IMG/VR virus record: IMGVR_UViG_3300017987_000005
Span: 41,157-105,156 of that record
Strand: one strand, 5' to 3'
Length of the DNA stretch: 64,000 bases
DNA from: a virus
Made by a program: the position numbers and the translations under genes. Positions 876 to 36,129 of the stretch are shown piece by piece. Every line of letters begins with the position of its first letter. The stretch's first letter is position 1. The notes beneath the pieces were generated by a model, which saw nothing but the letters and a program-made list of their open reading frames with translations, made no database searches and was not told the origin of the DNA.

Positions 876-1361
876 CTAAACTATATGGACGTCTTCGCTA
901 CCGTCAGATTTTTTGATTGTGATTTTTGCAAGTGGCGTGTTGTCCTTCGGAGGCCCGTCCTCTTTTGGCTCAATGACGGCTCCGGTCTCGGGATACTCTC
1001 CTCCGAGGGTATACTCAAGTTCCGGTCCATCAAATTCCCCGTACGCCATCCCATCCTGATACATTGCTCGCAAAATAGACAGCCACGGCTCCTGGACATA
1101 ATAATAAAACTGGTTCTCATGACGTCCGAGACTCCCGTCAGGATGACGGAGCAGAACAAGGTCAGTACCGAACGCTCCGGCTTTCTTCCTTACTTGGCAG
1201 ACATATCCGACATACATACTCCACCCGCGCTCTCCATGATGATTCCCATGCTGTAACGCGGTTATAACATATCGTCCCGGCTCGGGGTGAGTACTAAGAC
1301 CCACTCCGAACTCAGGGTCTTTTGAGTCAATAATCTTCTTAAGAACTTTTTCGTCCATCAC
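876..1361 (-). CDS. hypothetical phage protein
   Basis: 161-aa ORF, SD AGGAGAG, overlaps upstream gene. Confidence 0.75.
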   Translation of the reverse strand: MMDEKVLKKIIDSKDPEFGVGLSTHPEPGRYVITALQHGNHHGERGWSMYVGYVCQVRKKAGAFGTDLVLLRHPDGSLGRHENQFYYYVQEPWLSILRAMYQDGMAYGEFDGPELEYTLGGEYPETGAVIEPKEDGPPKDNTPLAKITIKKSDGSEDVHIV

Positions 1362-1872
1362 ACTCTCCTAATCCGTTATTAAACCACTTCCCCGATGAAG
1401 GTATCATCCGAGATGCTAATGAATACATAAATACTCTAACTTGTTCGTCAGCTTCTTCTTTTGTACTTGTTCCGAATATTGTCATATTATAACTGCCCCA
1501 CTTTACGCTTTTCAGAAATATCCTAAATACGCAGATGGCATATCCGTCGTGCGGGTCACTGACATACTCTTCCTTCTCATAGTACGGGCATATCACTGCT
1601 ATGCGAAGAATCCCCTGACAAAGGTCAATCTCCTTTATGGAATCAGCTCCGACTACAGCGTGCCCCTCCTCAAGCTCATTATATAACGCGCTAGCCAACT
1701 CGGTCTTCAAGATAGTCTCTATCTTGTCAATTATCCTGAATCCGTGTTCAAGCGCATTATCATCGAGACCGTAAATCGCTTCCTCGATAGCAAATGCTAT
1801 CGATGTCTCAATCTCTCCGAATAAGTCCGAATCCAGGGGTCGCATCCTGCTTCTCCAATTTTCCATTATCAT
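1339..1872 (-). CDS. WFNN-tag protein
   Basis: ends ...GKWFNNGLGECDGRKSS; true start uncertain because of overlap with upstream ORF. Confidence 0.7.
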   Translation of the reverse strand: MIMENWRSRMRPLDSDLFGEIETSIAFAIEEAIYGLDDNALEHGFRIIDKIETILKTELASALYNELEEGHAVVGADSIKEIDLCQGILRIAVICPYYEKEEYVSDPHDGYAICVFRIFLKSVKWGSYNMTIFGTSTKEEADEQVRVFMYSLASRMIPSSGKWFNNGLGECDGRKSS

Positions 1873-2221
1873 ACCATCGCGCTTCCGGCGCGACCATGTT
1901 CTTCAACGACACGTGCGAAATAATATACTTTTTATCAACTCTCCATCTGAATCCGATTCCCGGATTCGTAATCATAACTTTCACATGCGCATCATAAAAT
2001 TCCTCATGCCACTGCGTGCTCGGATACACTATCTGTACTTTAACTGCAACGTGGCACTCGTTCTCAATAACGGGAACTTCACTCAAACGCTTCTCAATGT
2101 GCTTCTTCAGGTTATACTCAGGCTGCTCGTCAGCCCAAACAAAATCCGATAGCTTATCAAATGAAATCTCGTCAAGAATTCGATTCACGTTAGTTTGTAC
2201 TACATCGCTCCAACTCATCAA
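1808..2221 (-). CDS. WFNN-tag protein (WYDN variant)
   Basis: ends ...ARWYDNGKLEK... Confidence 0.7.
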   Translation of the reverse strand: MMSWSDVVQTNVNRILDEISFDKLSDFVWADEQPEYNLKKHIEKRLSEVPVIENECHVAVKVQIVYPSTQWHEEFYDAHVKVMITNPGIGFRWRVDKKYIISHVSLKNMVAPEARWYDNGKLEKQDATPGFGLIRRD

Positions 2222-2583
2222 GAAACTCCGACTCCATTGTCAAACCACGCTCTGCTCATGTCGCATCTGGCAGGGTTATTCACGTCAACAAACGGCGCGG
2301 CACACTGATAGCACAACTCCGATGTCGGACTGTCAGGTCCTCCTCCGGCATAGGCGGACTTGCGAACATAATAATACTCTTCTCTCTTACGTATCTGTGC
2401 TCCACACGAATCGCAAAATTCCTCGTTATCAGATATCACTGGATTAACGATGAAGCTTGTGCGTAATCCAGAGGCGCGTCCGGCAGCAATCTTTTCAAAA
2501 GCCCTTACCGCCGTAGCAACTCTATCCCGGAAAGAAGAGCGTTTCGGGTGCTTTAGATATCGCTTCCACGCTTCTTTACGCAT
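2218..2583 (-). CDS. Zn-finger WFNN-tag protein
   Basis: CDSC...CYQC; ends WFDNGVGVS. Confidence 0.75.
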   Translation of the reverse strand: MRKEAWKRYLKHPKRSSFRDRVATAVRAFEKIAAGRASGLRTSFIVNPVISDNEEFCDSCGAQIRKREEYYYVRKSAYAGGGPDSPTSELCYQCAAPFVDVNNPARCDMSRAWFDNGVGVS

Positions 2584-2585
2584 AC

Positions 2586-2960
2586 TCAGTCCTTCTTATT
2601 ATTAAACCATCCGCGCGTACGAACACGTCCGCACGGAAACTCCATATTCAACTCGTACGTATCTCCAGCTTCCAACACTTGTATCGACACCTTCGCTCGT
2701 AACAGGTTGTTAGCAAGACTTTTCTCGGTGTTATTCCGGCGACTGCACTCAACTGTCCATCTATTAATCTTGTTTCTATTAAACAGCTCCCGACACCTCT
2801 CCTGAAGAATGGTGCGGTAATTCTGTATCGATACGATGTCCGCAGGTTCATATTCGAAATGCTTTCCGGCTTCCATGAACTCGTCCTGGAGATTCTCTAT
2901 AAAACTTTCCGCATCTATCTTGCGCGCTATCTTTTTACGCTTCGAAAACTTAGCCATCAC
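2586..2960 (-). CDS. WFNN-tag protein resembling tail-sheath C-terminal domain
   Basis: VECSRRNNTEKSLANNLLRAKVSIQ resembles the sheath motif V.CD..NNT...I..N.L.A...IQ; ends WFNNKKD. Confidence 0.6.
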   Translation of the reverse strand: MMAKFSKRKKIARKIDAESFIENLQDEFMEAGKHFEYEPADIVSIQNYRTILQERCRELFNRNKINRWTVECSRRNNTEKSLANNLLRAKVSIQVLEAGDTYELNMEFPCGRVRTRGWFNNKKD

Positions 2961-3208
2961 ATCTTCCCGTTATTAAACCACTTTTTCGGACCAGCATGAT
3001 ATTCTGAATAACAGCAATGACACACAACAACGGTGTGAACAATATCGCAATCAACGCGAGGATTGTATGTCGAGTTCTCAACTACGTGCAGCATTTCTCC
3101 GTAACCGATATTACCGGCGCACTTCTGACACGTCGAACCCTCCAAAGCTTCGCACACAATCGAGCTTCGGTCTGCATCCCTTAATAAATATCTGGTATAA
3201 CTGCTCAC
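2957..3208 (-). CDS. Zn-finger WFNN-tag protein
   Basis: CQKC...CHCC; ends WFNNGKM. Confidence 0.75.
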   Translation of the reverse strand: MSSYTRYLLRDADRSSIVCEALEGSTCQKCAGNIGYGEMLHVVENSTYNPRVDCDIVHTVVVCHCCYSEYHAGPKKWFNNGKM

Positions 3209-3756
3209 AAGCTCCTCCGGTTATTAAACCACGTCAAAGGAACGGGTACAACGAACGTCCCGTTCGGGCACTTAAGTCCAAAACGTACTGACTTATACTC
3301 ATCCGTCTCCGTCATCCCCTGGACGACAATCTTCAATACAAAATCTTCGCGAGCTTCCGTATATACGCGGAACTCGTCAATACTTATCCCATAGTATTTC
3401 GAGATAGACTTCTTTAGCGTCCTATCAAACTCAACTGAAGGGTTCTTCACTCCCGTAAACGCCATTCTGTCAAGTATGTCCTGATGCGCGTCGGCGGCTA
3501 ATTTATGCAGAGTGCTTATCAGCGTATCTGATTCAAGCATCTCCTTAAACATTTTCTTTATCGGTCCTCTTGACGCTGCTTTGGACTCTTCTCCGAGTAC
3601 GTCTTCGATAGCTGTCCACGATTCTCCCATGTACATATACATCGTATTAGTCGTAGCGTCGTAATGCAGGTCTCCCATGTTAGGCGACTTGGGAAAACTC
3701 CCGTCCCCATATCCGTACGACGGCCCTTCCTTAGACACACTCACAGCACTTCCCAT
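3205..3756 (-). CDS. WFNN-tag protein with tail-fibre-like PxxGDLHYD..MYMY.G.SW repeat
   Basis: start moved to ATG 3756 (MGSAVSV); ends WFNNRRSL. Confidence 0.65.
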   Translation of the reverse strand: MGSAVSVSKEGPSYGYGDGSFPKSPNMGDLHYDATTNTMYMYMGESWTAIEDVLGEESKAASRGPIKKMFKEMLESDTLISTLHKLAADAHQDILDRMAFTGVKNPSVEFDRTLKKSISKYYGISIDEFRVYTEAREDFVLKIVVQGMTETDEYKSVRFGLKCPNGTFVVPVPLTWFNNRRSL

Positions 3757-4180
3757 TGTTAAACCAATCCTTATTCGGTGCATGGTGATATCTGCGAAGG
3801 TAAATCCGCATCTCATCAGGCTTGTCCCCTATCTCGTTGTCATAGCAGTGTCGGCACAGGTACGCACAATCAGAATCCGTCTCAGCATCGCACTCCACTT
3901 TGACAGCAAACATGTCGGGCTTAAGCGCGTTTCCGCACAACATGCAGAACTCATCCTTCCGCATTACATGACTCTCAGTGTATACGCGGTAATCAGTCTC
4001 CTGCTTCTTATACTTCACTGCGCACAGCGTACAGACTATTTTTGAGCGGGAAGGCCCGCGTCTTTTCCCGATAATGTAAAATCCCGGCATATCACGAATC
4101 GGCACGAGACAATCCATGCACGTATACTGGTCATGGTCTTCTTCCATCCCTTTTGTCATAACGTATACTGGATGGTCCAT
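3731..4180 (-). CDS. double Zn-finger WFNN-tag protein
   Basis: CMDC..CTLC and CMLC..CRHC; ends WFNNGKCCECV. Confidence 0.75.
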   Translation of the reverse strand: MDHPVYVMTKGMEEDHDQYTCMDCLVPIRDMPGFYIIGKRRGPSRSKIVCTLCAVKYKKQETDYRVYTESHVMRKDEFCMLCGNALKPDMFAVKVECDAETDSDCAYLCRHCYDNEIGDKPDEMRIYLRRYHHAPNKDWFNNGKCCECV

Positions 4181-4605
4181 TATCGCTCACTCCTGTTATT
4201 AAACCACGCATTCGGAATAGCCGGCTCCACAGGCGGCTCGACTCTGAGATATTTAGCAGTGCACCATATGCATCTGAATCCGTCTCTCCGAAGGTCCTGC
4301 TTTCCTTTATACACGATGAACATATACTTCGGTGAATCCTCAAGCGGTATTACTTCTCCGCACGCTTGGCACGTCGGCTCTTCCTCAGACGTCCAGTCAG
4401 TCCGCGAAATAGTATACTGTCTGCTGGTCCCTTTATTGAACTCGTCTATCGCTTCACGTATCCGCTGCTGGAATACTTTCCACGGGTCAACAATACTCCA
4501 GGGGTCTCCTCCACAACGGCAGAAGTATCCCTCGTATGTCTGTTCCCCACACTCCGGGCACGGACGAAGCATTCTATCAGTCCCCATCACGCATCCCGTT
4601 ATCAA
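4180..4605 (-). CDS. Zn-finger WFNN-tag protein
   Basis: CPEC..CRC, CQAC..CIWC; ends WFNNRSER. Confidence 0.75.
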   Translation of the reverse strand: MITGCVMGTDRMLRPCPECGEQTYEGYFCRCGGDPWSIVDPWKVFQQRIREAIDEFNKGTSRQYTISRTDWTSEEEPTCQACGEVIPLEDSPKYMFIVYKGKQDLRRDGFRCIWCTAKYLRVEPPVEPAIPNAWFNNRSER

Positions 4606-4768
4606 ACCAAGCTCCCGAACACTTCCGGCGCTTCAGGTTCTCAGCATACACGATGAACTCGGTAAGGGCTTCCTCCCCCATCTCCTTACATTCGTGTATC
4701 GTCAGGTCATACTCAAAAGAAGCAAACGCTGACAATGCGTCGAAATTCACTTTTCGTTTCTTATTCAC
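4577..4768 (-). CDS. small WFNN-tag protein
   Basis: 63 aa, SD GGGAGAG; ends WFDNGMRDGD. Confidence 0.65.
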   Translation of the reverse strand: MNKKRKVNFDALSAFASFEYDLTIHECKEMGEEALTEFIVYAENLKRRKCSGAWFDNGMRDGD

Positions 4769-5193
4769 ACTGCTCTCCCATTATTAAACCAAAACATCTC
4801 CATCGGGACAAACTTAAATTCCCGAAGGACATATCTGCTCTTTCCAAACTCGTCTTTGAACGACACTTTCACAATGACTTTGTTATACAGGCGTCGTCCG
4901 CACATCGCATCATCAACAGCAAGAACAGTAAATCCCTCCGGCAGCGGAGGTCTAATCTCATTATTGAGCTTTATCTTCGCAAGGCTCCGATAACGCTTTG
5001 CATTATGAATCCATCTGTTCCTGCGGACATGTTTATTGACGCGTATCAGAGCAGCATCAATCTGCGCGTTCCAATCCTCATCCCGTACATACATCCCGGC
5101 ATCCATTATTAAACCACAACATCTTCTCCGGAACAAACTTGAACTTCCGTATGGCAAGTCGTCTGCTTCCGGCATCGTTCGTAAATCTGACAA
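4765..5193 (-). CDS. WFNN-tag protein, paralogue of 5078..5437
   Basis: ...REFKFVPMEMFWFNNGRAV; true start probably near 5100 (MDAG/MYVR). Confidence 0.65.
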   Translation of the reverse strand: MSDLRTMPEADDLPYGSSSLFRRRCCGLIMDAGMYVRDEDWNAQIDAALIRVNKHVRRNRWIHNAKRYRSLAKIKLNNEIRPPLPEGFTVLAVDDAMCGRRLYNKVIVKVSFKDEFGKSRYVLREFKFVPMEMFWFNNGRAV

Positions 5194-5410
5194 CTACGCT
5201 TACAGCAACATACGGGAAATCCGGAGTCGGCTGGATATCCGAGGTTTGTATGGTCGCGTCCCGGATACGCTCGGCATCAATAGTATCCCTCATCTCCTCC
5301 TTCACGAGATTCGCATACTCGAATGAGGCTTTCATACGCTTCTCCCGGCAGATGCGCTGATGCGCTCGGGTAATAGCGACATTAATCAGTGACAGCACGC
5401 TCTGGCTCAT
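5078..5410 (-). CDS. WFNN-tag protein, paralogue of 4765..5193
   Basis: ...RKFKFVPEKMLWFNNGC; start MSQSV at 5410 with SD GAGGAG. Confidence 0.7.
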   Translation of the reverse strand: MSQSVLSLINVAITRAHQRICREKRMKASFEYANLVKEEMRDTIDAERIRDATIQTSDIQPTPDFPYVAVSVVVRFTNDAGSRRLAIRKFKFVPEKMLWFNNGCRDVCTG

Positions 5411-5750
5411 CCCGCAACTCCTCACATCCATTATCAAACCAAGCTCCCGGAAAGTACGTCGGGTATAAATGGCGGTATATCACGCTCTCACTCTCATCGT
5501 TTTCCATGTACAGCAGCTCAACGCGAATATGCGGCTGAGGCACATTCTTGCTCTTGGTCATCTGGATACAGTCAACGCTCCATCCGTGGGGATAGTTCCA
5601 TCCCTTCACAAGCATGTTAATCATTGTCCGTATGGCTTTCTTATACGTCGTGGGGCGTCTTGACTCCCCCACACGTATCACCCACGCATGCGCTTGATTG
5701 ATAGCGTACTGCAACTGTCCGCGTATGGTTCCTCGTATCGTCATGTTCAC
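5382..5750 (-). CDS. WFNN-tag protein, first gene of operon
   Basis: SD GGAGAG, promoter directly upstream; ends WFDNGCEE... Confidence 0.75.
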   Translation of the reverse strand: MNMTIRGTIRGQLQYAINQAHAWVIRVGESRRPTTYKKAIRTMINMLVKGWNYPHGWSVDCIQMTKSKNVPQPHIRVELLYMENDESESVIYRHLYPTYFPGAWFDNGCEELRDEPERAVTD

Positions 5751-13662: not shown

Positions 13663-13686
13663 GACTCACCCTCCTTAAACGATTGG

Positions 13687-14067: not shown

Positions 14068-14113
14068 GTCCTTCTCCTTCAAAATACGGCAACTGTTGTT
14101 GAACCACGCAGGC

Positions 14114-14317: not shown

Positions 14318-14358
14318 GCCTTGTCTCCTTGAAAACTGTCTAATCAAACAACACTATT

Positions 14359-14386
14359 ATTATATCATATAATAGGTATAAGTCAA
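14359..14386 (-). promoter_or_regulatory. sigma70-type promoter
   Basis: TTGACT-16-TG.TATAAT. Confidence 0.75.
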
Positions 14387-14389
14387 GAA

Positions 14390-14647
14390 CTATTTTGAAG
14401 AAACTTTGGGCCAATAATGTTTCACTTTCGAACCCTTCTTTGGTCTAACATATCCAACCACCTCACACTTGGGGCATCTCATTCGTCCGCTACCGCCGGT
14501 ACAGGATGTCATCTCATAATGATTATGTTGATGCTGGCACCGCTGGTACTGTAACAATTCGCAACTATCAGCCTTGGGGCAACGATATATCGGCTGCCCC
14601 GAGGCTATAGCTGATTCAAACCACGGCTTTTTCATTTCTTCGTCCAT
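14390..14647 (-). CDS. Cys/His-rich hypothetical protein
   Basis: CPKADSC...CQHQHNH...CPKC. Confidence 0.65.
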   Translation of the reverse strand: MDEEMKKPWFESAIASGQPIYRCPKADSCELLQYQRCQHQHNHYEMTSCTGGSGRMRCPKCEVVGYVRPKKGSKVKHYWPKVSSK

Positions 14648-14928
14648 CCGAACCGCCCCTCATTGCGGAGCATCTCGCACGCACCCCGGTAAGAAAGGAG
14701 GTCTGTGTTCTGAAACATATGTGTCACGCACCCTGGAGACAGGTACTCGTGTCCCTCATTCCCATACCGGAGGCATCCGTGAGCATTCCCGCTCACCTTG
14801 TCAGTATAAACATAGAGGTCATACTTCTCCTCATCGCCGGGACTCCTCACAACAACGAATGACCCAACATATTCCTCCGCCGCATGGTCACACTTGTTAT
14901 CCCACACAGGACCATTTATCTTTATCAT
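14632..14928 (-). CDS. hypothetical protein
   Basis: 98-aa ORF in operon. Confidence 0.65.
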   Translation of the reverse strand: MIKINGPVWDNKCDHAAEEYVGSFVVVRSPGDEEKYDLYVYTDKVSGNAHGCLRYGNEGHEYLSPGCVTHMFQNTDLLSYRGACEMLRNEGRFGWTKK

Positions 14929-15245
14929 GCCCGGCTCCTCTCCATTACTTCAGCAAGAGTATGGTCATAACCATAGTGTCTGTCACGTTCCATCGGCAGA
15001 CCCATGATATTGATGCTCTCCAGTTCACGAAGGCTGAAGTACCCCAGCTCGGGGAAATCTCCCTCAACCCATCCGAAGAACAGCCAATCCCCGTCCTCCT
15101 GCTTGCTTCCCTCAGTGGCAAACCACGTCCAATGACTGAACGGATGAAAGAACTTCACCACCACGTTAATGTCTTCCGGTTCTTTGTCCTCATTCGCATA
15201 CAGCGCCGGCAGCTTCGATTCGATTTCTTTTGTCATAAGCTTCAT
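14925..15245 (-). CDS. DUF2958 family protein
   Basis: MKLMTKEI..KLPALY...VVKFFHPFSHWTWFATE...FFGWV....ELGYFSLRELE...MERD. Confidence 0.85.
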   Translation of the reverse strand: MKLMTKEIESKLPALYANEDKEPEDINVVVKFFHPFSHWTWFATEGSKQEDGDWLFFGWVEGDFPELGYFSLRELESINIMGLPMERDRHYGYDHTLAEVMERSRA

Positions 15246-15520
15246 GCCTCGTCTCCTTCTTCCATACCAGTAACGATAAATGTTTCCCGACTCGGCGCCT
15301 CGCATACGGCATGGTACAAGTCTGCCGCGTGCTTCAGCCCTTCGGCTTCTTCAGCAATCTGTTTTGCTTCGAAGGCGACCGTGTGGGTATCCTGACTGTG
15401 CATCTTGTTGAGCCGCTTATTTATAGACGACATCTTTGATGCAACAGCTCCGCCGAGGACAGTCCTCAACGTTTTGTAATCGACCTCAATCTTTTCCGCA
15501 TCGAAATGTGATAACTTCAT
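15242..15520 (-). CDS. hypothetical protein
   Basis: start MKLSHF with SD GAGGAG. Confidence 0.65.
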   Translation of the reverse strand: MKLSHFDAEKIEVDYKTLRTVLGGAVASKMSSINKRLNKMHSQDTHTVAFEAKQIAEEAEGLKHAADLYHAVCEAPSRETFIVTGMEEGDEA

Positions 15521-22827: not shown

Positions 22828-23208
22828 TTATTTCTTACCTCGTTGGCTTGGGCGACCATTGTTAAACCACTGGGTCGGAGCCTTGAACAGGTCTTCGTGG
22901 TGGTTGCGGTATCTCATGCAGACATCGCCGGCGGCAGCAAATATAGTTGGTCGAGAAGAAGAGAATGACCTCCACACTGCTTTGTGAGTCCCTGCCTTGA
23001 TAGCACTGTCAATAAGCAATCTGAAATTATCATCAACCGTCCCCCCAACATAATGTAAGTCGTCACGGTACAGCCATTTCCCCACTGCTGCCTGCTTTAT
23101 GGTAGAATGATATACTTCAACAATACCATGTTCAGGTCTTGCTATGTAAACTGTACACTGGTGTGTATGCCTACTCAACAGGACGCAGGCTTGATAGCTT
23201 TTTTCCAT
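22828..23208 (-). CDS. WFNN-tag protein
   Basis: ends ...TQWFNNGRPSQRGKK. Confidence 0.7.
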   Translation of the reverse strand: MEKSYQACVLLSRHTHQCTVYIARPEHGIVEVYHSTIKQAAVGKWLYRDDLHYVGGTVDDNFRLLIDSAIKAGTHKAVWRSFSSSRPTIFAAAGDVCMRYRNHHEDLFKAPTQWFNNGRPSQRGKK

Positions 23209-23560
23209 TGTTAAACCACTTTCCTTCTCTTACTGCTTCTGCCCGAAGTTCCCGATGTTTCGCAGCTACCTTTCTCTTGAAATAATCCCTTGCGCATATC
23301 GCTGCCCGCAGCATCGGGTGGTCAAATTCGTTAAAAATATCATACACCATGTGCTCATATTCTTTCCTATCCGCATAATCATGCGCTACCTCGTTAGCGA
23401 ACTCATGCAACGTACATCCATGCCTTGCAGCATCTCCGACATCGTACATCGCTACCTTGTTAAAACAATTCTGTGCAAACGAATGCAAAGGACTTTCATA
23501 AACAGTAATACTATGGTCACCCTGGACGATAAGGATTCCCCACTCCCCCTGTGGGCGCAT
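23171..23560 (-). CDS. WFNN-tag protein
   Basis: ends ...GKWFNNGKKLSSLRPVE; start uncertain. Confidence 0.65.
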   Translation of the reverse strand: MRPQGEWGILIVQGDHSITVYESPLHSFAQNCFNKVAMYDVGDAARHGCTLHEFANEVAHDYADRKEYEHMVYDIFNEFDHPMLRAAICARDYFKRKVAAKHRELRAEAVREGKWFNNGKKLSSLRPVE

Positions 23561-23579
23561 CTTTACCCAAAATCTTCCT

Positions 23580-23951
23580 CTACTTGGCATTGTTAAACCA
23601 CCCTTTCATCGGTTCAGGTCTGGTAACCTTAAATAATCTCTCGCCAACTTCCAACATCTCAGTCAACATCTCCGCTGCCTTCTTAGGAAGTGTGGTTCGT
23701 GTCCCTGCAACAGTTCCCATCCTACCGCAGCGGCGATGCGTCTCAAAGTATTTAACGGTCTGTTCATACGAATACCTGTCCCGTACATAAAAATCCTCTA
23801 TCGGAGTCTCACGAAGAATCTTCGCCCCGGACTTCGTATAAGGTACTCTGAAAACTCGGGCTACGCGCCCACCCTTACGTCTCAGCGGAGCAACTACAAG
23901 AAGCGTGTCTACGCGCTTACCATTACTCTCTTTGAAAACGTGGGCAATCAT
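23580..23951 (-). CDS. WFNN-tag protein
   Basis: ends ...MKGWFNNAK. Confidence 0.75.
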   Translation of the reverse strand: MIAHVFKESNGKRVDTLLVVAPLRRKGGRVARVFRVPYTKSGAKILRETPIEDFYVRDRYSYEQTVKYFETHRRCGRMGTVAGTRTTLPKKAAEMLTEMLEVGERLFKVTRPEPMKGWFNNAK

Positions 23952-23954
23952 CGC

Positions 23955-24323
23955 CTACTCCTTTGCATTGTTAAACCATCCAGCAAACACTGGCTCTGCC
24001 GGCGTTGGTTCGGGCTTTGATACATAATGACTTCCATACTTTGCCCATTTCACTGCTTTCTCCTGCAACCACTCGTGCTCCCCTTGGTCGCTGAATATCA
24101 AAACGTAATCATCCCCCTTCTTCCGCCACCCGCGCAACTTCTTCTCCAGTTGCGTATCAAACGAATGGGTATAATAAATCTGATTACTGAAGTGACCTCT
24201 GCTCAGCGTCTCATTACGTCCGTAGAAACAATCAACACCGCCTCCCCCAGGTCTTTCCATAAGGAAGTAATACTTATTGTGTCTACCGGTCGTACAAACG
24301 TAAAGTTCTGCTCTGACTTCCAT
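23955..24323 (-). CDS. WFNN-tag protein with WGR-like N-terminus
   Basis: HNKYYFL...YGRN...QLEKKLRG..K.DYV resembles WGR; ends FAGWFNNAKE. Confidence 0.7.
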   Translation of the reverse strand: MEVRAELYVCTTGRHNKYYFLMERPGGGGVDCFYGRNETLSRGHFSNQIYYTHSFDTQLEKKLRGWRKKGDDYVLIFSDQGEHEWLQEKAVKWAKYGSHYVSKPEPTPAEPVFAGWFNNAKE

Positions 24324-24334
24324 CGCTCACCCTC

Positions 24335-24826
24335 CTACGAATGCATATCTATGAGGACTATGTATCGCTTACCCTCATCCTCACCATACTCGTGTGCTTT
24401 CTGAGTTATACCGAAATTATCAAACTGATAATCAAAATAATTTACTGACCATATATCAAAGTTATCAGCCTGAGTCCCTGCTTCATATTTCGCTTTAGCA
24501 TACTTAGAAAGTTTCCACCAATCCCAGTTATCATCCGGCTCCTCACCGGCAAGAACTGTGGTCATGGTTGCGAGTGCCTCCTCCTCATTGTCAAACTCAC
24601 TGAGCGCCTTCTTCAGCATCTCCTCAATGTCTTTGATTTTATAAGACGAGGGCGTCCACCGTCCTTCTCCGGTGTCGTATGCAGTATCATCCTCGCAAAC
24701 CGACCCGCAGATACTTCTCCAGTTATTCTCATTACCCCACTCCACGATACTGCTTTCAACAGCATCACAAGCCTCCTGATGATTTTCCGCTCTGACTGTC
24801 ATAAAATGAAGATAATGCATTGTCAT
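24335..24826 (-). CDS. acidic hypothetical protein
   Basis: first gene after promoter; ends LIDMHS. Confidence 0.75.
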   Translation of the reverse strand: MTMHYLHFMTVRAENHQEACDAVESSIVEWGNENNWRSICGSVCEDDTAYDTGEGRWTPSSYKIKDIEEMLKKALSEFDNEEEALATMTTVLAGEEPDDNWDWWKLSKYAKAKYEAGTQADNFDIWSVNYFDYQFDNFGITQKAHEYGEDEGKRYIVLIDMHS

Positions 24827-24849
24827 TGTCTCCTATAAAGTATAGTTAT

Positions 24850-24877
24850 ATTATATCATATAAATGATATTTGTCAA
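24850..24877 (-). promoter_or_regulatory. sigma70-type promoter
   Basis: TTGACA-16-TG.TATAAT. Confidence 0.8.
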
Positions 24878-24895
24878 GGACTATCTGAAACAACT

Positions 24896-25372
24896 TCACG
24901 CCCGCACGGGCACGTTCTCAAACCACGGCTTCTTGGGTTTCCAATAGTACCACTCTCCCATCGGGGCATCGTGATGCGTCACTCTCACCTTAAGTCCGTC
25001 TCCGTCCTCCCACACCCACCAGTGGTAATCCCCTCCGTTTCCGAGGCATTTGCTGATGAGCGCCTTTCCGTCCGTTATGTCCTCAAAGTCAGATTCGGCA
25101 GAACGGTGCTGCCATCCCATGTTGCGTCCTTCGGCATGCCACCGTCCGTCCGGGCACAGTCTCCTGACAACATCAGTCAGATTAGCCAGCTCCGATTCAT
25201 AGCAGAAATCAAACAGGGCACCGTCCATTTGAATTTCCTGCCAGATATCGTCCTCATCCGGTTTCTCATCATAACCGAAGTCTTCCCAATTCTCAAGACG
25301 ATATTCAACCTCACCCTTCATTATCTCGTAAGTGTCCCAACTGGCTACAAGTTTTTCAGTTTCTTCAACCAT
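24896..25372 (-). CDS. hypothetical protein (degenerate tag KPWFEN)
   Basis: HHDAPMG motif; ends KPWFENVPVRA. Confidence 0.75.
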   Translation of the reverse strand: MVEETEKLVASWDTYEIMKGEVEYRLENWEDFGYDEKPDEDDIWQEIQMDGALFDFCYESELANLTDVVRRLCPDGRWHAEGRNMGWQHRSAESDFEDITDGKALISKCLGNGGDYHWWVWEDGDGLKVRVTHHDAPMGEWYYWKPKKPWFENVPVRA

Positions 25373-25374
25373 GA

Positions 25375-25548
25375 TTAGTCCTCCGTAACTATCCAGCCCT
25401 CGGGGTCGAGAGTATCACTGTACTCAAGTACATCACTGTAATCCCCGCCACCGTCAGCAACAGCTTGTTTCGCAGCCTCGGCGTCTTCCGCCTCAACTAC
25501 AACGTGCTGAAAGTGTATCTCTTTTACAAGCACCCTGAATCTTTTCAT
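25375..25548 (-). CDS. small hypothetical protein (absent from ORF track)
   Basis: own translation MKRFRVLVKEIHFQHVVVEAEDAEAAKQAV..., 57 aa, fills the gap. Confidence 0.7.
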   Translation of the reverse strand: MKRFRVLVKEIHFQHVVVEAEDAEAAKQAVADGGGDYSDVLEYSDTLDPEGWIVTED

Positions 25549-26291
25549 ACCTCTAACTCCTCTTCAAGAAGGTTCTCGATATACTGACGAATTACCTCCC
25601 AGTAAATGTCAGAGTTCATAAACGCATCGTGAAGTCTGCTCGCCAGATTGGGAAGACTGTCCCGTATAATTTCCTGCTGCGCCTTCTCCATCTTATCAAA
25701 CCCCGGAACATCGCCGGTGCTGACGATGGTAACGACTGCCCGTTCATAATCGAGTCTGTCCTGCTGATGTATGCAAGCCATCGGTTTAGGTTCGATTACG
25801 ATGTCGGGAAGCTCCTTGCGTGCCTCGACTATAAGTTTGTGGTTCTCATAGTCATCAACCGGAATACGGTATATTTCACTGAAATCCTTCGGTGCCATAT
25901 CCCATCCGCACGAATAGACGACAAGTTCTTTTTCCGCCGCGTTAATGCGATAGAAATACTCGATGTCCCCGTGGAACCCGCAGTCCTTTCCGCAAATCCC
26001 ATGACCCAGGAAATCCATTCCGTCCGGCGCGCCGTAATCTTTCCCCGAATTCCAGCGAGCCATGCTTTCAGTGCTGTGGTGAATAAGGTGAAACATCAGC
26101 CATGCGGGGAGGTACTCAACATCGGTCAGCCCCCGCTCGTCGCTGAACCGTTTCAGGAACGGAAGTATCCCATAAGGAACTCCATGCGGACCATCCGGGT
26201 AACCGTCACTGTGACGATACATCAAAACAGTCGGCTCAGCCATCGGCTGACTGTCCCGTTCATAAATCCCTATTTGACAACGTGTACTCAT
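25545..26291 (-). CDS. conserved phage protein (MSTR...Y.HSDGYP type)
   Basis: MSTRCQIG...YRHSDGYP...GDIEYFY. Confidence 0.75.
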   Translation of the reverse strand: MSTRCQIGIYERDSQPMAEPTVLMYRHSDGYPDGPHGVPYGILPFLKRFSDERGLTDVEYLPAWLMFHLIHHSTESMARWNSGKDYGAPDGMDFLGHGICGKDCGFHGDIEYFYRINAAEKELVVYSCGWDMAPKDFSEIYRIPVDDYENHKLIVEARKELPDIVIEPKPMACIHQQDRLDYERAVVTIVSTGDVPGFDKMEKAQQEIIRDSLPNLASRLHDAFMNSDIYWEVIRQYIENLLEEELEV

Positions 26292-26533
26292 GCCGTAACT
26301 CCTTCCTCTACAGGTACTAAAAGACCAGTCGCAAGGTCGGGAACTTCCGCTATCCGTGCGAACTGGTCAGCCGGCTCGAATTCGGCAATGACATCATCAC
26401 CGTAGTGCCGGTAAGCAATACTGGTCTGGTCGGAGTCGAGAAAATACGAAATCATCTCACCCCGTCTGATGCGTACATTCACACGCATCCGCCCCTCATC
26501 ATCTTCAACTAACGTAGCGATTGCTCGCGCCAT
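26288..26533 (-). CDS. hypothetical protein
   Basis: leader AAGGAGACG preceded by palindromic operator. Confidence 0.7.
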   Translation of the reverse strand: MARAIATLVEDDEGRMRVNVRIRRGEMISYFLDSDQTSIAYRHYGDDVIAEFEPADQFARIAEVPDLATGLLVPVEEGVTA

Positions 26534-26545
26534 AATACGTCTCCT

Positions 26546-26561
26546 TTGCAAGTGATTGCAA
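26546..26561. promoter_or_regulatory. TTGCAA-N4-TTGCAA palindrome between promoter and RBS
   Basis: TTGCAAGTGATTGCAA; one of at least 12 copies. Confidence 0.65.
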
Positions 26562-26582
26562 TTAACTTAAACATACACTTAT

Positions 26583-26610
26583 ATTATATCATATAAAAGT
26601 AATTAGTCAA
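26583..26610 (-). promoter_or_regulatory. sigma70-type promoter
   Basis: TTGACT-16-TG.TATAAT. Confidence 0.75.
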
Positions 26611-26759
26611 GGGAAAAATAAAACAACTTCCGACCGTATATGTGCGGATTCGACCACCATTACGAGCGATTCCGCACGCAAATACACAAGAAATAAAAAG
26701 CCCCCGTGCAGGGCAAGCAATCCTACACGAGGGCCAGGGAAAGGAGGTGCGAGGTGTGA

Positions 26760-27131
26760 TTAACTCTTTCGGTTGTTAAACCACCTCGCGGGCTTGGCAG
26801 TCTGTGGCTGTGGGTACTTCCCGAGCAAATCCTCCAGGGCCTCGGCTGCTTCTTTCGGAATTTCGTCCAGGAACCCCTGGATAACTCCGTAGTGCTTGTA
26901 CCCCAGGCGCAACAGTCTGTCAATATATCCACTATAGTCGTGCTTCTTACTGATATAAAGACTTCTCGCACTTGCCTCGCGAAGTCGGTGGACTGATGCT
27001 CGGTTAAGCTGCCCTCCCGCAACGCGTGCTCTGAATGTCGGCTTATCCTCACCCTTCTTGTGCTTCTTCATAACGACAGAGAAGTCGGCAGGTGTCTTGC
27101 CGTTATCCCGAATATAAATATGTGCTCTCAT
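26760..27131 (-). CDS. WFNN-tag protein
   Basis: ends ...KPARWFNNRKS. Confidence 0.75.
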   Translation of the reverse strand: MRAHIYIRDNGKTPADFSVVMKKHKKGEDKPTFRARVAGGQLNRASVHRLREASARSLYISKKHDYSGYIDRLLRLGYKHYGVIQGFLDEIPKEAAEALEDLLGKYPQPQTAKPARWFNNRKS

Positions 27132-28505: not shown

Positions 28506-28533
28506 ATTATAGCATATAAATGTAATATGTCAA
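28506..28533 (-). promoter_or_regulatory. sigma70-type promoter
   Basis: TTGACA-16-TG.TATAAT. Confidence 0.8.
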
Positions 28534-30618: not shown

Positions 30619-33063
30619 TCACATCCCCGCCTTTCGCACACTTTTTAACCCCTTCAAGAAGCCGGATATCTTCGTGTACGCAGTCTTAACAAGTTCGCTC
30701 ACCTTATCAACTTTGCAATGGTTCGTATAGTAACGACCGACACTTGAGTACTGAACTCCGATGCAGAACAGATTGATTTCGCCGCTATCCTCTATCTGTC
30801 GGGCAACCTGTATCAAATCTTCATCGGGATTGTATCGAGCATACCCCGCCGGCGCTCCATCGCAGATTACGATTAACAGTTTCTTGCTTTCCTTGCGCTC
30901 TGCCAATCTCCTGGCGGCCCATCGTAAACTCTCACCGTCAAGGTTCTGATAAAGCAGTACCTCGGGCAGACTTCCCATCGCACCTTTGGTCTTATGGTCT
31001 AATTTCCGTTCAAACGGTTTTACGACATAGCCGAGCAGTGGGCTCACTCTGGTGTACCCTTCTTTGTAGTGATGGCTCCCGCCTCCGACTTGGGTGAATC
31101 CGAGAACTTCAAACGGTACCCCGACTAAGTTCAATGTTTCCGACAGAATAATAGCAACATCCGTTGCCGTCTGTATCTTGCTTCCCGACATCGAACCGGA
31201 GCAGTCAACGAGCAGAGTAACCGCAGCATCAAGTTCAATCTTCCGCCGCTTCTGCTTGAACAAATCTTCTTCTTTGAATGCGACCCTGAATAAATCCCTG
31301 TCATTAATCGTACCCTGCTTCTGTCGCTTTGTCCACTTCTTAGGATTGCCGAGCAAGTCCATCAGCAGTCTCCGCCGGAGCACATTAACATCGCCCCTCA
31401 GTTCTTGGACATTCTTAGTGTATCGCTCGAACCCCCGCTCCCTCGCGTCCGCCGCATGCGTATGCGGATATACTTTTCCCAACGCAGCCGGGTCTCTCTC
31501 AGCAACAAGGTCTACCTCCCGGTCGTCATTGATGTAAGGTATCACAGTTTCCCCACGATAGCCGGAATCAACTTTGTCAGTAATAATCAGTTTGCTAACC
31601 TTATCATAAAGCACGCTTTCAGCAGTCACGCCCCCATCTGCTCCACTGCTCTGCTGAGCAATGCCTCCGATAGTTTCATCAAGTTTATCTTTAACTTCCT
31701 GCCGCTTCTCCTCGATGCTTTTTTCTTCTTCCTCTACCCCGTCTTCTTCACTCTCCTCACCATCAGGACTCCCGTCGCCATCACCGTCCCCTTCTTCGGC
31801 TTCCTCCTCACCCTCGTCATCATCAAAATCCTCATCCTCGCCATCATCATCCCAACCATCTTCCTCATAATCCTCTTCGCCCCACTCGTCCCAATCCTTT
31901 TCCTCTTCACCTTCCTCTTCGTCCTCTACCTCCCCTTCATCATCTGCTCCACTATCAGAACCTTCTCCATCAGAGGATGAATCCTCGGCCTCGTCTCCGT
32001 CTTCGCCTTCAGCAGAATCAGAAGTTCCCTCAGCCTCTTCAGTTTCTTCACTATCATCTCCGCCTCCTCCGGATTCATCTTCCCCTTCGCCGGCTCCTTC
32101 ATCTTCGCCCTCCTCACTGCAATCACTTGCAGAACTATCGTCACCTTTATCTTTTCTCATATCAATTTCTTCAACTTCCCCCGGACCGGAACTATCCTTT
32201 TCCTGCTCCCCCTCACCTTTACCTTCCCCGTCCTCGGATTTGTCGCTCTTGCTCTTTTTCCCCTTGCCTCCCTTTGAGGACTTCCCGCCAGACTCAGAAC
32301 TCTCACTATCCCCATCAGCCTCAGAAGAACTCCCCTGTCCCTGACCGGACTGGCTTTCCCCTTCCTGTCCTTCCTCACCCTCTCCCCCATACGGGTTCGG
32401 CACTTCGACCTGACTGATATAGTCCTTCAAAATTTCAGTCATTTCCATTGAGAGGTTAACTACCTCCTCAGTACTGCGAACTGACTTCGCCCGCTCCAAC
32501 TGCTCCTTCACCATGTCCACGAATTTCGGGTACATCGGGCTGACCTCTTCTCCACGACTGTCAATATACTCAATATCGTCCGGCCTGTGGGTTCTTGTCA
32601 TACGCATACCGAGCAGAAGCAGGGCACGTTCGTTATCATCGCAACCCTCCTTGTCTCGGATATTACTGCAAATGTCCTCTTTATAGAGCGCCTGATTGTG
32701 AATGAAGTCAAGGTTTCGGGCTACGCCGAGAGCCTTCTCCCCCATCAGCTTATCGACCCTGGCATCTTCCATTGCATTACTGAAAAAATGGACAATCCCC
32801 GCGCCGATTATTTTCTTCCGTTTGTAAACACCCATGTCGGTGTCATTAACGTGACCGGACTCATGGTCAACAAGACCTCGAAGCATATTGATTGCTTCAT
32901 CACTCAAGTCCGCCGGAAGTGGTGGCAGATGTATGATACCATGCTTGTTAGGCTCAGTATATGCTCCGCCCTTCGTGTCGTAAAGGATACGAACACGTTT
33001 GCCGGCACAGACACGTGCAGCCGCTTGCTGTCCGACTTCTAACATTCTTGCTAACTTACTCAT
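30619..33063 (-). CDS. cobT: CobT-like vWA (MIDAS) protein with N-terminal HExxH domain and long acidic linker
   Basis: HESGH; NAMEDARVD; E/D/G/S-rich middle; LLVDCSGSM, EVLGFT, DGESL.WA..RL, LIVICDGAP. Confidence 0.8.
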   Translation of the reverse strand: MSKLARMLEVGQQAAARVCAGKRVRILYDTKGGAYTEPNKHGIIHLPPLPADLSDEAINMLRGLVDHESGHVNDTDMGVYKRKKIIGAGIVHFFSNAMEDARVDKLMGEKALGVARNLDFIHNQALYKEDICSNIRDKEGCDDNERALLLLGMRMTRTHRPDDIEYIDSRGEEVSPMYPKFVDMVKEQLERAKSVRSTEEVVNLSMEMTEILKDYISQVEVPNPYGGEGEEGQEGESQSGQGQGSSSEADGDSESSESGGKSSKGGKGKKSKSDKSEDGEGKGEGEQEKDSSGPGEVEEIDMRKDKGDDSSASDCSEEGEDEGAGEGEDESGGGGDDSEETEEAEGTSDSAEGEDGDEAEDSSSDGEGSDSGADDEGEVEDEEEGEEEKDWDEWGEEDYEEDGWDDDGEDEDFDDDEGEEEAEEGDGDGDGSPDGEESEEDGVEEEEKSIEEKRQEVKDKLDETIGGIAQQSSGADGGVTAESVLYDKVSKLIITDKVDSGYRGETVIPYINDDREVDLVAERDPAALGKVYPHTHAADARERGFERYTKNVQELRGDVNVLRRRLLMDLLGNPKKWTKRQKQGTINDRDLFRVAFKEEDLFKQKRRKIELDAAVTLLVDCSGSMSGSKIQTATDVAIILSETLNLVGVPFEVLGFTQVGGGSHHYKEGYTRVSPLLGYVVKPFERKLDHKTKGAMGSLPEVLLYQNLDGESLRWAARRLAERKESKKLLIVICDGAPAGYARYNPDEDLIQVARQIEDSGEINLFCIGVQYSSVGRYYTNHCKVDKVSELVKTAYTKISGFLKGLKSVRKAGM

Positions 33064-33111
33064 TTGTTCACCCTCCGAATATATGAGTATCTTAACTAAA
33101 TATACAATTAT

Positions 33112-33139
33112 ATTATATCATATAATTGCAATAAGTCAA
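33112..33139 (-). promoter_or_regulatory. sigma70-type promoter
   Basis: TTGACT-16-TG.TATAAT. Confidence 0.75.
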
Positions 33140-33226
33140 GCAGATTTTCAAACAACTTCTCACCCTTAGTTAAGGGGCGGAGGTCTGCATCCCCCGCCCC
33201 TTCATTTGCGAAGAACGGAGGGTGAC

Positions 33227-34408
33227 CTATTCTTCGCTCGTGCCCATCCTGTCGCTCATATCAATCGGGTCTTTAGCTATCCGCTGATAAATCTCAGCAA
33301 GCGCCATCGCGTCCTCGTCCGTGCATTTATTCAGCACCGCGACTTTGAACGCATCGACCATCGTCCATCCCTTCCCGATAAGCTTCGCCGTGGCGATACT
33401 TTTCCGAAGGCTGAATGTAGTCATAATATCCTGACCGAAGCTCGCACGTGCAGCCGTGGCAATCTTCGTTAATGATTTCGCTTGCGCCTGTCCGATTCCG
33501 GTTCTCCTGCGGAGCACCTTTATCTCGTCTGACTGTGACAGGTAATTGATGCGGAACACTCCCAACCATCTATCAAGGAAGGCTTCGTCAAGTATCTGCC
33601 GACTCCGATAGATGTCTGCTTGGTCACCTCGTCCTGCGGTATTCGAGGTGGCGACCACTGCGAATCCTGGAGCCGCTTTGACGCGCTCACCGTGGTTCTT
33701 GGAAACAATGAGGTCTTTACCTTCCAGAACTCGTTGGAGTACGAACAGAATTCCCTGCTCCGCCACGTCCAACTCGTCAATCTGAAGCACCAATCCCTCA
33801 CGCATTGACTGCGTAAGCGGACCATCGGTAAATACGGTTTCCATCACACCGTCACCGTTGTCTTTCAGACTGATGTGTCCGATGAAGTCATCGACCGTGG
33901 TTTCCTCGGTCATATTGAATGGAAGTACTTTCCGACCGAGCTTGTGTTTGATAACACGTTCAAGCAGGTCTGTTTTCCCCGTGCCGGCAGGTCCGATTAA
34001 GAGAACGGGAAACCCCTCCTCAATCAGTTCGACTACCTTGGGGGTGCATTCGGGATAGATATAGAAATCCGAATCGGCATCGCCGTCGAACTCCTTACCT
34101 TCCCTGAGTGTGGGTGTCGGCTGACCCTTAATCCCTTTATAGGATTTAGGAGTAACCTTGACATTGAGAGTACTCTCAGTCACCCACGCAAGTTTCACAC
34201 CGGGAATCGTAAGGTCGGTTATTTCAGAAATGACGTCTGCCTTGAGACCCTTCTCACGCAAATCATCATCCGCGACCTCGAAATCGGTGCACCCGACTTC
34301 AGCGATAAACTCGTGCAGAACGAGCTTCGCCTCTTCCTTACGCATCTGGTCGATTGCCGACTCAGACTTTGTGGCAAATCCTGCCAGTTTTTTGTCGTCC
34401 ATCTTCAC
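33227..34408 (-). CDS. cobS: CobS/CbbQ/MoxR-type AAA+ ATPase
   Basis: GPAGTGKT Walker A, LQIDELD Walker B, ATSNT.G.GD, LDEAFLDRW, FSLRK; next to vWA partner. Confidence 0.85.
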   Translation of the reverse strand: MKMDDKKLAGFATKSESAIDQMRKEEAKLVLHEFIAEVGCTDFEVADDDLREKGLKADVISEITDLTIPGVKLAWVTESTLNVKVTPKSYKGIKGQPTPTLREGKEFDGDADSDFYIYPECTPKVVELIEEGFPVLLIGPAGTGKTDLLERVIKHKLGRKVLPFNMTEETTVDDFIGHISLKDNGDGVMETVFTDGPLTQSMREGLVLQIDELDVAEQGILFVLQRVLEGKDLIVSKNHGERVKAAPGFAVVATSNTAGRGDQADIYRSRQILDEAFLDRWLGVFRINYLSQSDEIKVLRRRTGIGQAQAKSLTKIATAARASFGQDIMTTFSLRKSIATAKLIGKGWTMVDAFKVAVLNKCTDEDAMALAEIYQRIAKDPIDMSDRMGTSEE

Positions 34409-34436
34409 CCTCCTTTAGAAAAAAGAAATGGACTGG

Positions 34437-34979
34437 TTATTCTTCACCCTCCTCGGCATCCTTGCCGGTAAGGGCATCAACATCATCATTGAAATCCGTA
34501 CTGAACACGACCCGAACGAGAACTGTAGCGGTCTCGCGACCTTCGTCAATCGGCACAATTACCGATGTCCACATCAGTTTCCGTTCATCACTTTCCGAAA
34601 CGATGTCAAACCGTTCCGCTATGCCGTCATTCTCGGGGCAGTATTGAACAAAATCGTTCCCACCGAACTGCTCCTTGGCATAATTTTCAAGGAACTTCTT
34701 CACCGCTTCGATTTGGTCTTCGCCCCGCAGTCTCGTCTGATTATCTTGCGGAGATACTTTTCCCCCGACCATCTCGATGTGTTTACAGTGACCACGGTTC
34801 TCAAATCCCTGACAGTCACAAGAGGCAATACCTTCCTCGGTTTCCTCATTGTATTCTGTAGTGATAGAATACGTGGCCTCCGTCTTTACAGTTCGCTTGT
34901 TGACTTTGCGAACCTCCCACTTCCCGACCTCTAGGAAGTCACAGATATACATTAGGTCTTTTTTAATCTCGCCTCCCAT
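34437..34979 (-). CDS. SWIM Zn-finger protein
   Basis: SCDCQGFENRGHCKHI. Confidence 0.75.
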   Translation of the reverse strand: MGGEIKKDLMYICDFLEVGKWEVRKVNKRTVKTEATYSITTEYNEETEEGIASCDCQGFENRGHCKHIEMVGGKVSPQDNQTRLRGEDQIEAVKKFLENYAKEQFGGNDFVQYCPENDGIAERFDIVSESDERKLMWTSVIVPIDEGRETATVLVRVVFSTDFNDDVDALTGKDAEEGEE

Positions 34980-35035
34980 TTGCTCACCCTCCTATAAAAG
35001 AATTATGGGAAACATTAAACTTAAACAACACTTAT

Positions 35036-35063
35036 ATTATAGCATACAAAAGTAATAAGTCAA
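35036..35063 (-). promoter_or_regulatory. sigma70-type promoter
   Basis: TTGACT-16-TG.TATAAT. Confidence 0.75.
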
Positions 35064-35083
35064 GGATTATTTCAGAAAACTTT

Positions 35084-35323
35084 CTACCCCTCCGATTCCT
35101 CGCTACCCCGTGACTTCACGTGACCACCGCCCATAGCTTGTCCCACTGCGGTCAGCACATATCCGGTTAGGAACATAAGCATGACCACCAGGTCCATAAT
35201 AGCTTCCTGGGTATTCTGTGGTACGAGGTTACCTCCGTACGTGATGGTCAAGGCGAGACCCAGTAATACTGCTCCTATCAGTAACTTGACTCCCGCCTTG
35301 AATAACGCGTGACCGTCCATCAT
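35084..35323 (-). CDS. small two-TM membrane protein
   Basis: two hydrophobic stretches. Confidence 0.7.
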   Translation of the reverse strand: MMDGHALFKAGVKLLIGAVLLGLALTITYGGNLVPQNTQEAIMDLVVMLMFLTGYVLTAVGQAMGGGHVKSRGSEESEG

Positions 35324-36129
35324 TTATCCTTGAACTCTTTGTTGGAATAGATTACACCATCCGCATCCGCAACAAGCACTTTCACGCCGGCAGCTCCTTC
35401 AAGCTCCTTCACCAGACGCTTAATTTCTTCCCGCTTGTCACCGTGCACGTGTGACGCAATGAATGAAGTACAGATATAGTCAAGGTTGGCACCCGACTTT
35501 TCACTGGTAGAGATTTTCTCAGACAACTCGAGCGCCGTCTTGAGATTCTCGGCCTGCTCTTCAAACAGGTTAAACGTGATACGCACGACCTTCTCGATTT
35601 TTCTCCCGTCCTTGATTGCTTTCGACCGGAGTGTCAGCGCACGTTCCCGCACCGTCTCAACAGTAATGCCGGAGCTGTCCTCAATAAGGTCTACGATGTC
35701 GGAAGTTTCGATGGCCTCTTCCTGTGCGATACTCGCAATCTCTTTCAGCTTCGACCACCCTTTATTCCGGATTACTTCAAGCGGTATGCCCCGCTTATTC
35801 CGGAGTTGGTCCCATATTTTAATGAGATACATCGCCTTGCGGTACTGAAACTCCAGTTCCGGACTTTCAATATACTGCTGAAAACTGTCGTACTCTTTGC
35901 CGGTCTTGGGATTAATCCAATCCCGCCAGTACTCCTCCCCGTTAATAACGAAGAGCGCTTCAGCCAGCGCAATATTGGCCTTGTCGTGAAACGTGACCAG
36001 GTCCTTCGCGGCTTTCCGGAATGCCTCATCCCGTGTAAGACGCTTCCCATCCTCGCCAAGGAGGTACGGGGTAAAGTCACCGTTCTGAAGAATACTCATC
36101 GCCTTTGTACTGTCTTGTGTCTCAGACAT
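35320..36129 (-). CDS. hypothetical (putative DNA-binding) phage protein
   Basis: 269 aa; YDSFQQYIE...RKAMYLI...GWSKLKE. Confidence 0.7.
   Translation of the reverse strand: MSETQDSTKAMSILQNGDFTPYLLGEDGKRLTRDEAFRKAAKDLVTFHDKANIALAEALFVINGEEYWRDWINPKTGKEYDSFQQYIESPELEFQYRKAMYLIKIWDQLRNKRGIPLEVIRNKGWSKLKEIASIAQEEAIETSDIVDLIEDSSGITVETVRERALTLRSKAIKDGRKIEKVVRITFNLFEEQAENLKTALELSEKISTSEKSGANLDYICTSFIASHVHGDKREEIKRLVKELEGAAGVKVLVADADGVIYSNKEFKDK

Follow-up and report, generated by a model that had tools for sequence, protein, structure and literature searches.

The window analysed here is the 64,000-nt stretch at positions 41157-105156 of the virus record IMGVR_UViG_3300017987_000005 (183,648 bp in total); coordinates refer to the window unless they are marked as genome positions. 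Between positions 22,828 and 27,131 it carries six genes whose products share a short motif near the C-terminus, W-F-[N/E]-N, which is called the tag in the following. The tag was identified in 6 out of 6 genes (22828, 23171, 23580, 23955, 24896 and 26760) and lies 2-11 residues ahead of the stop codon. WFNN and KPWFEN ends had been listed for these genes in a preliminary description of the stretch, and all of them were recovered. The six genes are located on the minus strand, which holds nearly all genes of the phage. The genes and the promoters heading their operons (lengths in amino acids, aa) are:

22828..23208, minus strand: 126 aa, predicted early gene; tag WFNN at 22858-22869, 9 residues before the stop codon, C-terminus ...TQWFNNGRPSQRGKK; last gene of its operon, next promoter at 22814-22787
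23171..23590, minus strand: 139 aa, predicted early gene; tag WFNN at 23207-23218, 11 residues before the stop codon, C-terminus ...GKWFNNGKKLSSLRPVE; no family match in Pfam or PHROGs
23580..23951, minus strand: 123 aa, predicted early gene; tag WFNN at 23589-23600, 2 residues before the stop codon, C-terminus ...KGWFNNAK
23955..24323, minus strand: 122 aa, predicted early gene with a possibly WGR-like body; tag WFNN at 23967-23978, C-terminus ...AGWFNNAKE
24850..24877, minus strand: perfect sigma-70-type promoter, heading the operon of 24335-24826 and four tagged genes
24896..25372, minus strand: 158 aa, predicted early gene; variant tag WFEN at 24914-24925, 5 residues before the stop codon, C-terminus ...KKPWFENVPVRA
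26583..26610, minus strand: sigma-70-type promoter with 11/12 matches, at the head of the operon whose last gene is 24896-25372
26760..27131, minus strand: 123 aa, predicted early gene; tag WFNN at 26772-26783, 3 residues before the stop codon, C-terminus ...ARWFNNRKS; last gene of its operon, terminator-like hairpin at 26714-26700
28506..28533, minus strand: perfect sigma-70-type promoter (TTGACA-16-TATAAT, TG before TATAAT), heading the operon that ends with 26760-27131

Neither Pfam nor PHROGs assigned a family to the six tagged proteins or to four of their neighbours. The product of 24896..25372 ends in ...KPWFENVPVRA, and its last codons (VPVRA) are overlapped by a G+C-rich hairpin at 24897-24914, immediately upstream of the next promoter, which is probably the operon terminator placed within the coding sequence.

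Genome-wide, the coding strand has 28 near-consensus sigma-70 promoters and the opposite strand has one. In the whole-genome map, the structural module at 83-142 kb contains neither a promoter of this type nor a tag; the module must therefore use another promoter type. Since the tagged genes lie behind perfect sigma-70 promoters and outside the structural module, their sequence context marks them as early genes. A weak Sigma70_r4 match was observed among the genes at 143-183 kb.

Occurrence and coding of the motif

A search of the whole genome with the DNA pattern TGGTTYRAYAAY resulted in 38 matches on the coding strand, none on the other strand and none for a reversed control pattern. The six-frame census of the genome yielded 43 W[FY][NDE]N motifs, every one of which lies on the coding strand and in frame with a long open reading frame. 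In 38 of the 43 cases the motif lies 1-18 residues ahead of a stop codon; an open frame had to span 56 codons or more for its motif to be counted as C-terminal. When the residues were shuffled within each protein, a mean of 0.05 and a maximum of 2 C-terminal tags were obtained (2000 shuffles), and the 881 long frames taken from other phage loci (154 kb, chosen without regard to the motif) contained no tag. A similar motif frequency in other phage C-termini, named in the preliminary description as one result that would speak against a tag, was not seen. The tag-bearing genes account for approximately 14% of the genes of the phage. The window contains 18 WF[NDE]N motifs and one WYDN, all on the minus strand, and these include the following cluster:

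1339..5750, minus strand: twelve consecutive genes that form the first cluster of this tag

In the sequence logo, a core of four residues comes after a small residue and a stretch rich in Pro and Lys. The tag is a real, in-frame, terminal and clade-specific feature carried by predicted early genes. No paper on 'WFNN' or on shared C-terminal motifs in phage early genes was found in the literature.

Five of the 43 motifs are located away from any stop codon, three to four of them near an N-terminus. At genome positions 39402 and 166672 the motif lies 8 and 5 residues, respectively, downstream of an ATG that overlaps the preceding stop codon (ATGA). A further copy of this kind is found in the window:

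14095..14106, minus strand: WFNN near a probable N-terminus, MKSSNSSGYKPAWFNN..., ATG at 14142

Here the motif is found 12 residues past the ATG, which is preceded by a strong ribosome-binding site (GGAGG...AAGGAAG). The orthologue of the 39402 protein in the syntenic relative L101 has WFEN at the equivalent place. Models based on termination or translational coupling were dropped, as N-terminal copies exist and two of the six tags described above end operons.

The codons of the motif were then compared. TGG is invariant, the remaining positions being TT[TC], [AG]A[N] and AA[TC], so that variation is limited to synonymous exchanges (TTT/TTC, AAT/AAC) or to N/D/E. All 43 copies read W-F-x-N, though the G-L-T frame is just as open. 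Codon usage for Asn, and for the Gly that often comes after the tag (four codons), matches the genome-wide frequencies. In a relative with 60-70% protein identity (L096) both tags are retained, with AAT and AAC exchanged for each other in both orthologue pairs. The DNA flanking the 12-nt tag has an identity of 0.32 between neighbouring tags compared to 0.31 for any two tags, and no extended nucleotide identity could be found. These results show selection of the tag at the peptide level. The codon difference noted earlier between the two clusters was reproduced, the third tag codon being AAC in 5 out of 5 WFNN tags of the six genes and mostly AAT in the first cluster. The four consecutive tags at 22828-24323 consist of one identical 12-mer, for which reason some local copying of tag codons is possible.

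Carrier proteins and related phages

In BLASTP and hhalign comparisons the similarity among the six proteins was limited to the tag, except for 23580-23951 and 26760-27131, which are full-length paralogues with 29% identity and an hhalign probability of 94%. Full-length homology among the tagged proteins, which would have reduced the tag to a part of one shared domain, was therefore not seen among the six beyond this pair. The view that the tag is no artefact of local tandem duplication holds as well, the bodies being unrelated save for the one pair and the tag flanks being no more alike in neighbours.

An AF2 model was obtained for 23955-24323 with a predicted local distance difference test (pLDDT) value of 85, in which residues 1-96 are folded and residues 100-122 disordered. 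The last strand in the model of 24896-25372 stops at residue 146; residues 150-153, which form the tag, are part of a tail with a pLDDT below 50. As judged by these models, the tag lies in a disordered, low-confidence tail past the last structured element in two different folds.

The exhaustive search for homologues of 23955-24323 with phmmer (1.8 billion representatives) yielded six more small proteins of 36-61% identity, all six of which end in GWFNN or TWYNN. In the alignment of the seven WGR-like sequences W116, N118 and N119 are invariant, and the preceding linker varies in sequence and length. A remote homologue with two WGR domains is tagless. Orthologues of 24896-25372 retain WFEN or WFNN, and a homologue within the clade with 43% identity (L103) has WFNN. 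In other phages (L105, L107-L110), its homologues share 25-35% identity, stop just after the conserved HHD[AS]PTGE.Y strand and are tagless. The preliminary description had proposed an actively acquired tag and a comparison with homologues in other phages. The distant homologues do lack the tag, and together with the disordered tails they support its nature as an add-on; the tag may have been gained in this clade or lost in the others.

The WGR-like N-terminus proposed for 23955-24323 is weakly supported. In the ESM Atlas, WGR was found in 76 of the 100 nearest clusters, and Foldseek against the PDB gave weak matches to PARP2 WGR chains (E 0.1-0.4, template modelling score 0.3-0.36) and none at E <=0.001, whereas the Pfam WGR model (PF05406) did not match at E up to 0.1 and its gathering score was not reached. 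The assignment is a lead and not a membership. The tail of the same protein (23955-24100; Y.V.F...YGS.Y..P.PT...F.GWF) resembles the Listeria-Bacteroides repeat Flg_new (PF09479), with 15.6 bits and E = 0.018, below the gathering score of 27 bits. Giant repeat proteins among the phmmer matches align to residues 64-120 via P.PT...F.GW[FY], and no fold is seen in the tail in the AF2 model.

In the syntenic relative L101/L112, eight C-terminal tags and two N-terminal motifs were found, partly on genes without a counterpart in the phage described here. The N-terminal motifs belong to the orthologue of the 39402 protein and to a small gene beginning MKVWFNN. The latter (L112:5546-5755, 69 aa) lies as an insertion between CobS and CobT, where this phage has no gene, and has a strong ribosome-binding site. 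In the distant AT-rich relative L113 (GC content 0.30, CobT 51% identical) the tag is W-Y-[ND]-[NG] in 5 out of 5 visible cases, compared to 37 WF and one WY in this phage (Fisher p about 6e-6, our own arithmetic). The tag thus co-varies, changing from WF to WY in concert within a genome, and it has been passed on within one phage lineage, whose hosts differ widely in GC content.

A scan of IMG/VR for two tags spaced 357-387 nt apart (start to start), a spacing that would miss relatives such as L101, resulted in 84 loci. The same phenomenon was found only in L061, a near-identical fragment of this phage; the remainder consisted of repeats of low complexity or of a single unrelated family of tandem paralogues that ends in SRYYDIDKWFDNLIDV. 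This family is found in AT-rich viral contigs (L070, L044, L072, L073 and L024) as tandem full-length paralogues that all have this end; it is a true family without the tag phenomenon. When IMG/VR was searched with the 248-aa neighbour, the CobT-like protein or the WGR alignment, either nothing or only three distant tagless loci were retrieved. One distant relative (L002:573-18628 of IMGVR_UViG_3300033145_000529, 148 kb) has only the 248-aa neighbour in common, at 38% identity. In L002, about nine otherwise different small proteins have the recurrent near-C-terminal motif C-x-x-C-x-x-R-F-x-C-[YW]-T, which may be a zinc knuckle with an analogous role.

The record has a 123-bp terminal repeat, and the genome assembly is probably circular. 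The tail sheath, tail tube, baseplate and portal genes are those of a myovirus, and the replication and recombination genes encode a family A DNA polymerase, a primase, a DnaB-like helicase and a UvsX-like recombinase. Ro60, RtcB, an RF-1 domain protein similar to ArfB, Apyc1, NAD salvage genes and a CobS/CobT-like pair are encoded as well. A dense set of counter-defence and repair genes was observed at genome positions 2021-15359 and 143-183 kb (L004, L009-L011). It comprises Ro60 (TROVE), RtcB, RlaP, the ArfB-like protein (genome 13641-13997), Apyc1 and the NAD genes, which include NadV-like, NAD synthase, isochorismatase, NADAR and cytidylyltransferase-like genes.

The tag as a possible docking signal

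Encapsulin targeting peptides are short and conserved, are located at a protein end behind a flexible linker, and direct unrelated cargo to one partner (PMC7925596, PMC10960027). The tag is similar in being a terminal peptide behind a flexible linker on unrelated proteins. It differs from the Gly-Ser-Leu type core of the encapsulin peptides and in its approximately forty carriers, compared to one to a few for encapsulin. In addition, encapsulin cargo genes lie beside the shell gene, whereas the tagged early genes are far from the capsid genes. The capsid targeting sequence of T4 is N-terminal, comprises about ten residues, is found on IPI-III and Alt and is removed by the prohead protease (PMC3012670, PMC9026906). 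It is likewise a phage-encoded address peptide on unrelated proteins, but the tag has only four residues, is C-terminal in 38 of 43 cases, is carried by predicted early genes and has no visible link to a prohead protease.

Docking motifs of protein hubs, such as clamp-binding motifs and the PIP-box, have a pair of neighbouring aromatic residues in a disordered tail at either terminus, frequently beside basic residues, and serve many clients of one hub. The tag shares the adjacent aromatics and the disordered tail. It does not fit the consensus Q-x-x-[LIM]-x-x-[FY]-[FY] or QL[SD]LF, since the logo has no upstream Gln or aliphatic residue; moreover, no clamp gene was seen among the 129 untagged proteins surveyed, and the phage polymerase belongs to family A. 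C-terminal degrons of the SsrA/ClpX type have a fixed position at the extreme C-terminus with a free carboxylate, which the tag does not have, and no SPASM radical SAM maturase of the kind encoded with three-residue cyclophane substrates was found.

The interpretation we favour, with a rough probability of 0.55, is that W-F-[N/D/E]-N is a terminal docking or address tag, a short linear motif read by one common partner. It would be placed on about forty early proteins that are otherwise unrelated, at an end that is disordered and rich in Pro and Lys, mostly the C-terminus and occasionally the N-terminus. A single partner would recognise the aromatic pair and the Asn, and would handle the tagged proteins as a group, either by recruiting them to one complex or place or by giving them a common fate. 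We infer both the binding to one partner and what would follow it. The inheritance in one lineage and the concerted change fit a single reader. Since the tag is inherited in this lineage across hosts of differing GC content and changes in concert, we consider a phage-encoded reader more likely than a host hub.

Several observations weigh against this interpretation. The Phe codon is TTT in 33 of 37 C-terminal tags compared to 61% in comparable contexts (p = 3e-4), and there is therefore a nucleotide-level or shared-history effect on top of the peptide signal. In all three N-terminal tags the Phe codon is TTC, and an out-of-frame TAA or TGA arises where TTT precedes A or G. Part of the reason why Gly-[Lys/Arg] is often found after the tag is that the ribosome-binding site of the following gene overlaps it, so that the peptide core comprises only four residues. 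Furthermore, the N-terminal orthologue pair of 39402 and L101 shares a longer block, WF.NRFQI, in which the motif may be part of a fold and not a tag. Finally, no reader protein was found, and a Pfam and PHROGs survey of the 129 untagged proteins, which lists families and is not exhaustive, revealed neither a protease nor a clamp nor a classical peptide-binding domain.

One set of neighbouring genes was considered as a candidate for the reader:

30619..33063, minus strand: CobT-like VWA protein, candidate reader only
33227..34408, minus strand: CobS-like MoxR AAA+ protein, candidate reader only
34437..34979, minus strand: SWIM-finger protein, candidate reader only

Together with a 269-aa phrog_17202 protein, the 180-aa SWIM protein (C-x-C...C-x-H) and the CobS-like and CobT-like proteins form a four-gene module at 30619-36129, in which CobS and CobT have their own promoter each and a terminator between them. 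The module is kept in three lineages (this phage, L112 and L113), and the CobT-like VWA protein has an intact metal ion-dependent adhesion site (MIDAS) motif. MoxR AAA+/VWA machines such as CbbQ-CbbO and NorQ-NorD act on protein tails. This phage and its tag-bearing relatives resemble these adaptor systems in carrying the SWIM/CobS-like/CobT-like module with its MIDAS intact; MIDAS sites bind acidic residues, however, whereas the tag position is mostly Asn. SWIM/CobS/CobT modules were also found in many phages beyond the tag-bearing clade, and a complex prediction for the CobT-like VWA protein (814 aa, 50-row alignment) with residues 85-122 of 23955-24323 gave a score of 0.01, where the mark is 0.32, a result that counts neither for nor against binding. 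The SWIM/MoxR/VWA module is the sole candidate machine seen, and a candidate only.

Among the other explanations, a degron, by which an AAA+ protease of the host or the phage would start at the disordered end and destroy early proteins at a set time, is unlikely. It would account for a terminal, disordered tag at either end of predicted early proteins, and aromatic-rich tags are known as Lon signals. The 0-18 residues after the tag and the N-terminal copies argue against a carboxylate-anchored ClpX, SsrA or Tsp signal, the survey of untagged proteins revealed no protease gene, and a tag for conserved host proteases should not be limited to one phage lineage. Loading as cargo, in which the tag binds the procapsid interior (capsid, scaffold or portal) and the proteins are packed and injected with the DNA, would be consistent with the encapsulin-like architecture of a terminal peptide with a flexible linker on diverse cargo of an HK97-type shell (PMC7925596, PMC10960027), and large myoviruses do have internal proteins (PMC7697877). 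We regard it as quite unlikely, as the tagged genes lie in sigma-70-driven regions among replication genes, none is located in or next to the structural module at 83-142 kb, and 43 different cargo species would be unprecedented. A covalent event, by which a phage enzyme cleaves, ligates or cross-links the tag (a radical-SAM aromatic-Asn cross-link or cleavage at Asn), appears improbable. The extension after the tag is variable and seemingly dispensable, two radical SAM proteins are encoded, and W-F-N and F-N-N would suit three-residue cyclophane peptides, whose pattern is aromatic-x-x. The two radical SAM proteins are only 274 and 278 aa long, however, with generic models below cut-off only and no peptide-maturase or SPASM match, and the carriers are folded proteins of 60-200 aa rather than leader-core peptides.

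The remaining two explanations are both considered very improbable. A nucleotide signal at gene junctions, with the translated 12-mer acting as a recombination linker, a coupling element or an RNA processing site, could explain why the motif is always within about 60 nt of a gene boundary. The TTT excess, the identical 12-mer in four consecutive tags and a 12-mer sharing of 0.22 between neighbours versus 0.09 for tags in general also point in this direction. The exclusive use of the W-F-x-N frame in 43 of 43 copies with the G-L-T frame equally open, the restriction of variation to synonymous or N/D/E positions and the lack of extended nucleotide identity around the tags contradict such a signal, as do the two of six tags that end operons with no gene downstream and the AT-rich relative that retains the peptide with other codons. 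Shared descent alone would make the tail a relic, without a common reader, of one ancient paralogous family diverged past recognition; three full-length paralogue pairs exist, and several bodies begin, by our reading, with a similar strand-turn-strand pattern. Yet the hhalign similarity among the six proteins does not extend beyond the tag save in 23580/26760, the two AF2 bodies differ in architecture, and the out-of-clade homologues of one body are tagless. Moreover, invariance next to a hypervariable linker is not expected of a relic, and neither is a concerted switch from F to Y.

With a docking tag read by one partner as the preferred interpretation, a more speculative extension is a proteome sorting system belonging to the lineage itself. 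In such a system the tag would route early, mostly orphan proteins to one phage machine, the tag and its reader would co-evolve, with WF changing to WY between lineages, and genes could join by acquiring the tail. Early genes of large phages are mostly orphans. A tag common to forty of them implies that they are handled as one class, and it provides an experimental handle on them. Should the reader be encoded by the phage, the tag would belong to a protein-addressing system made by a virus, on a scale not described for phages.

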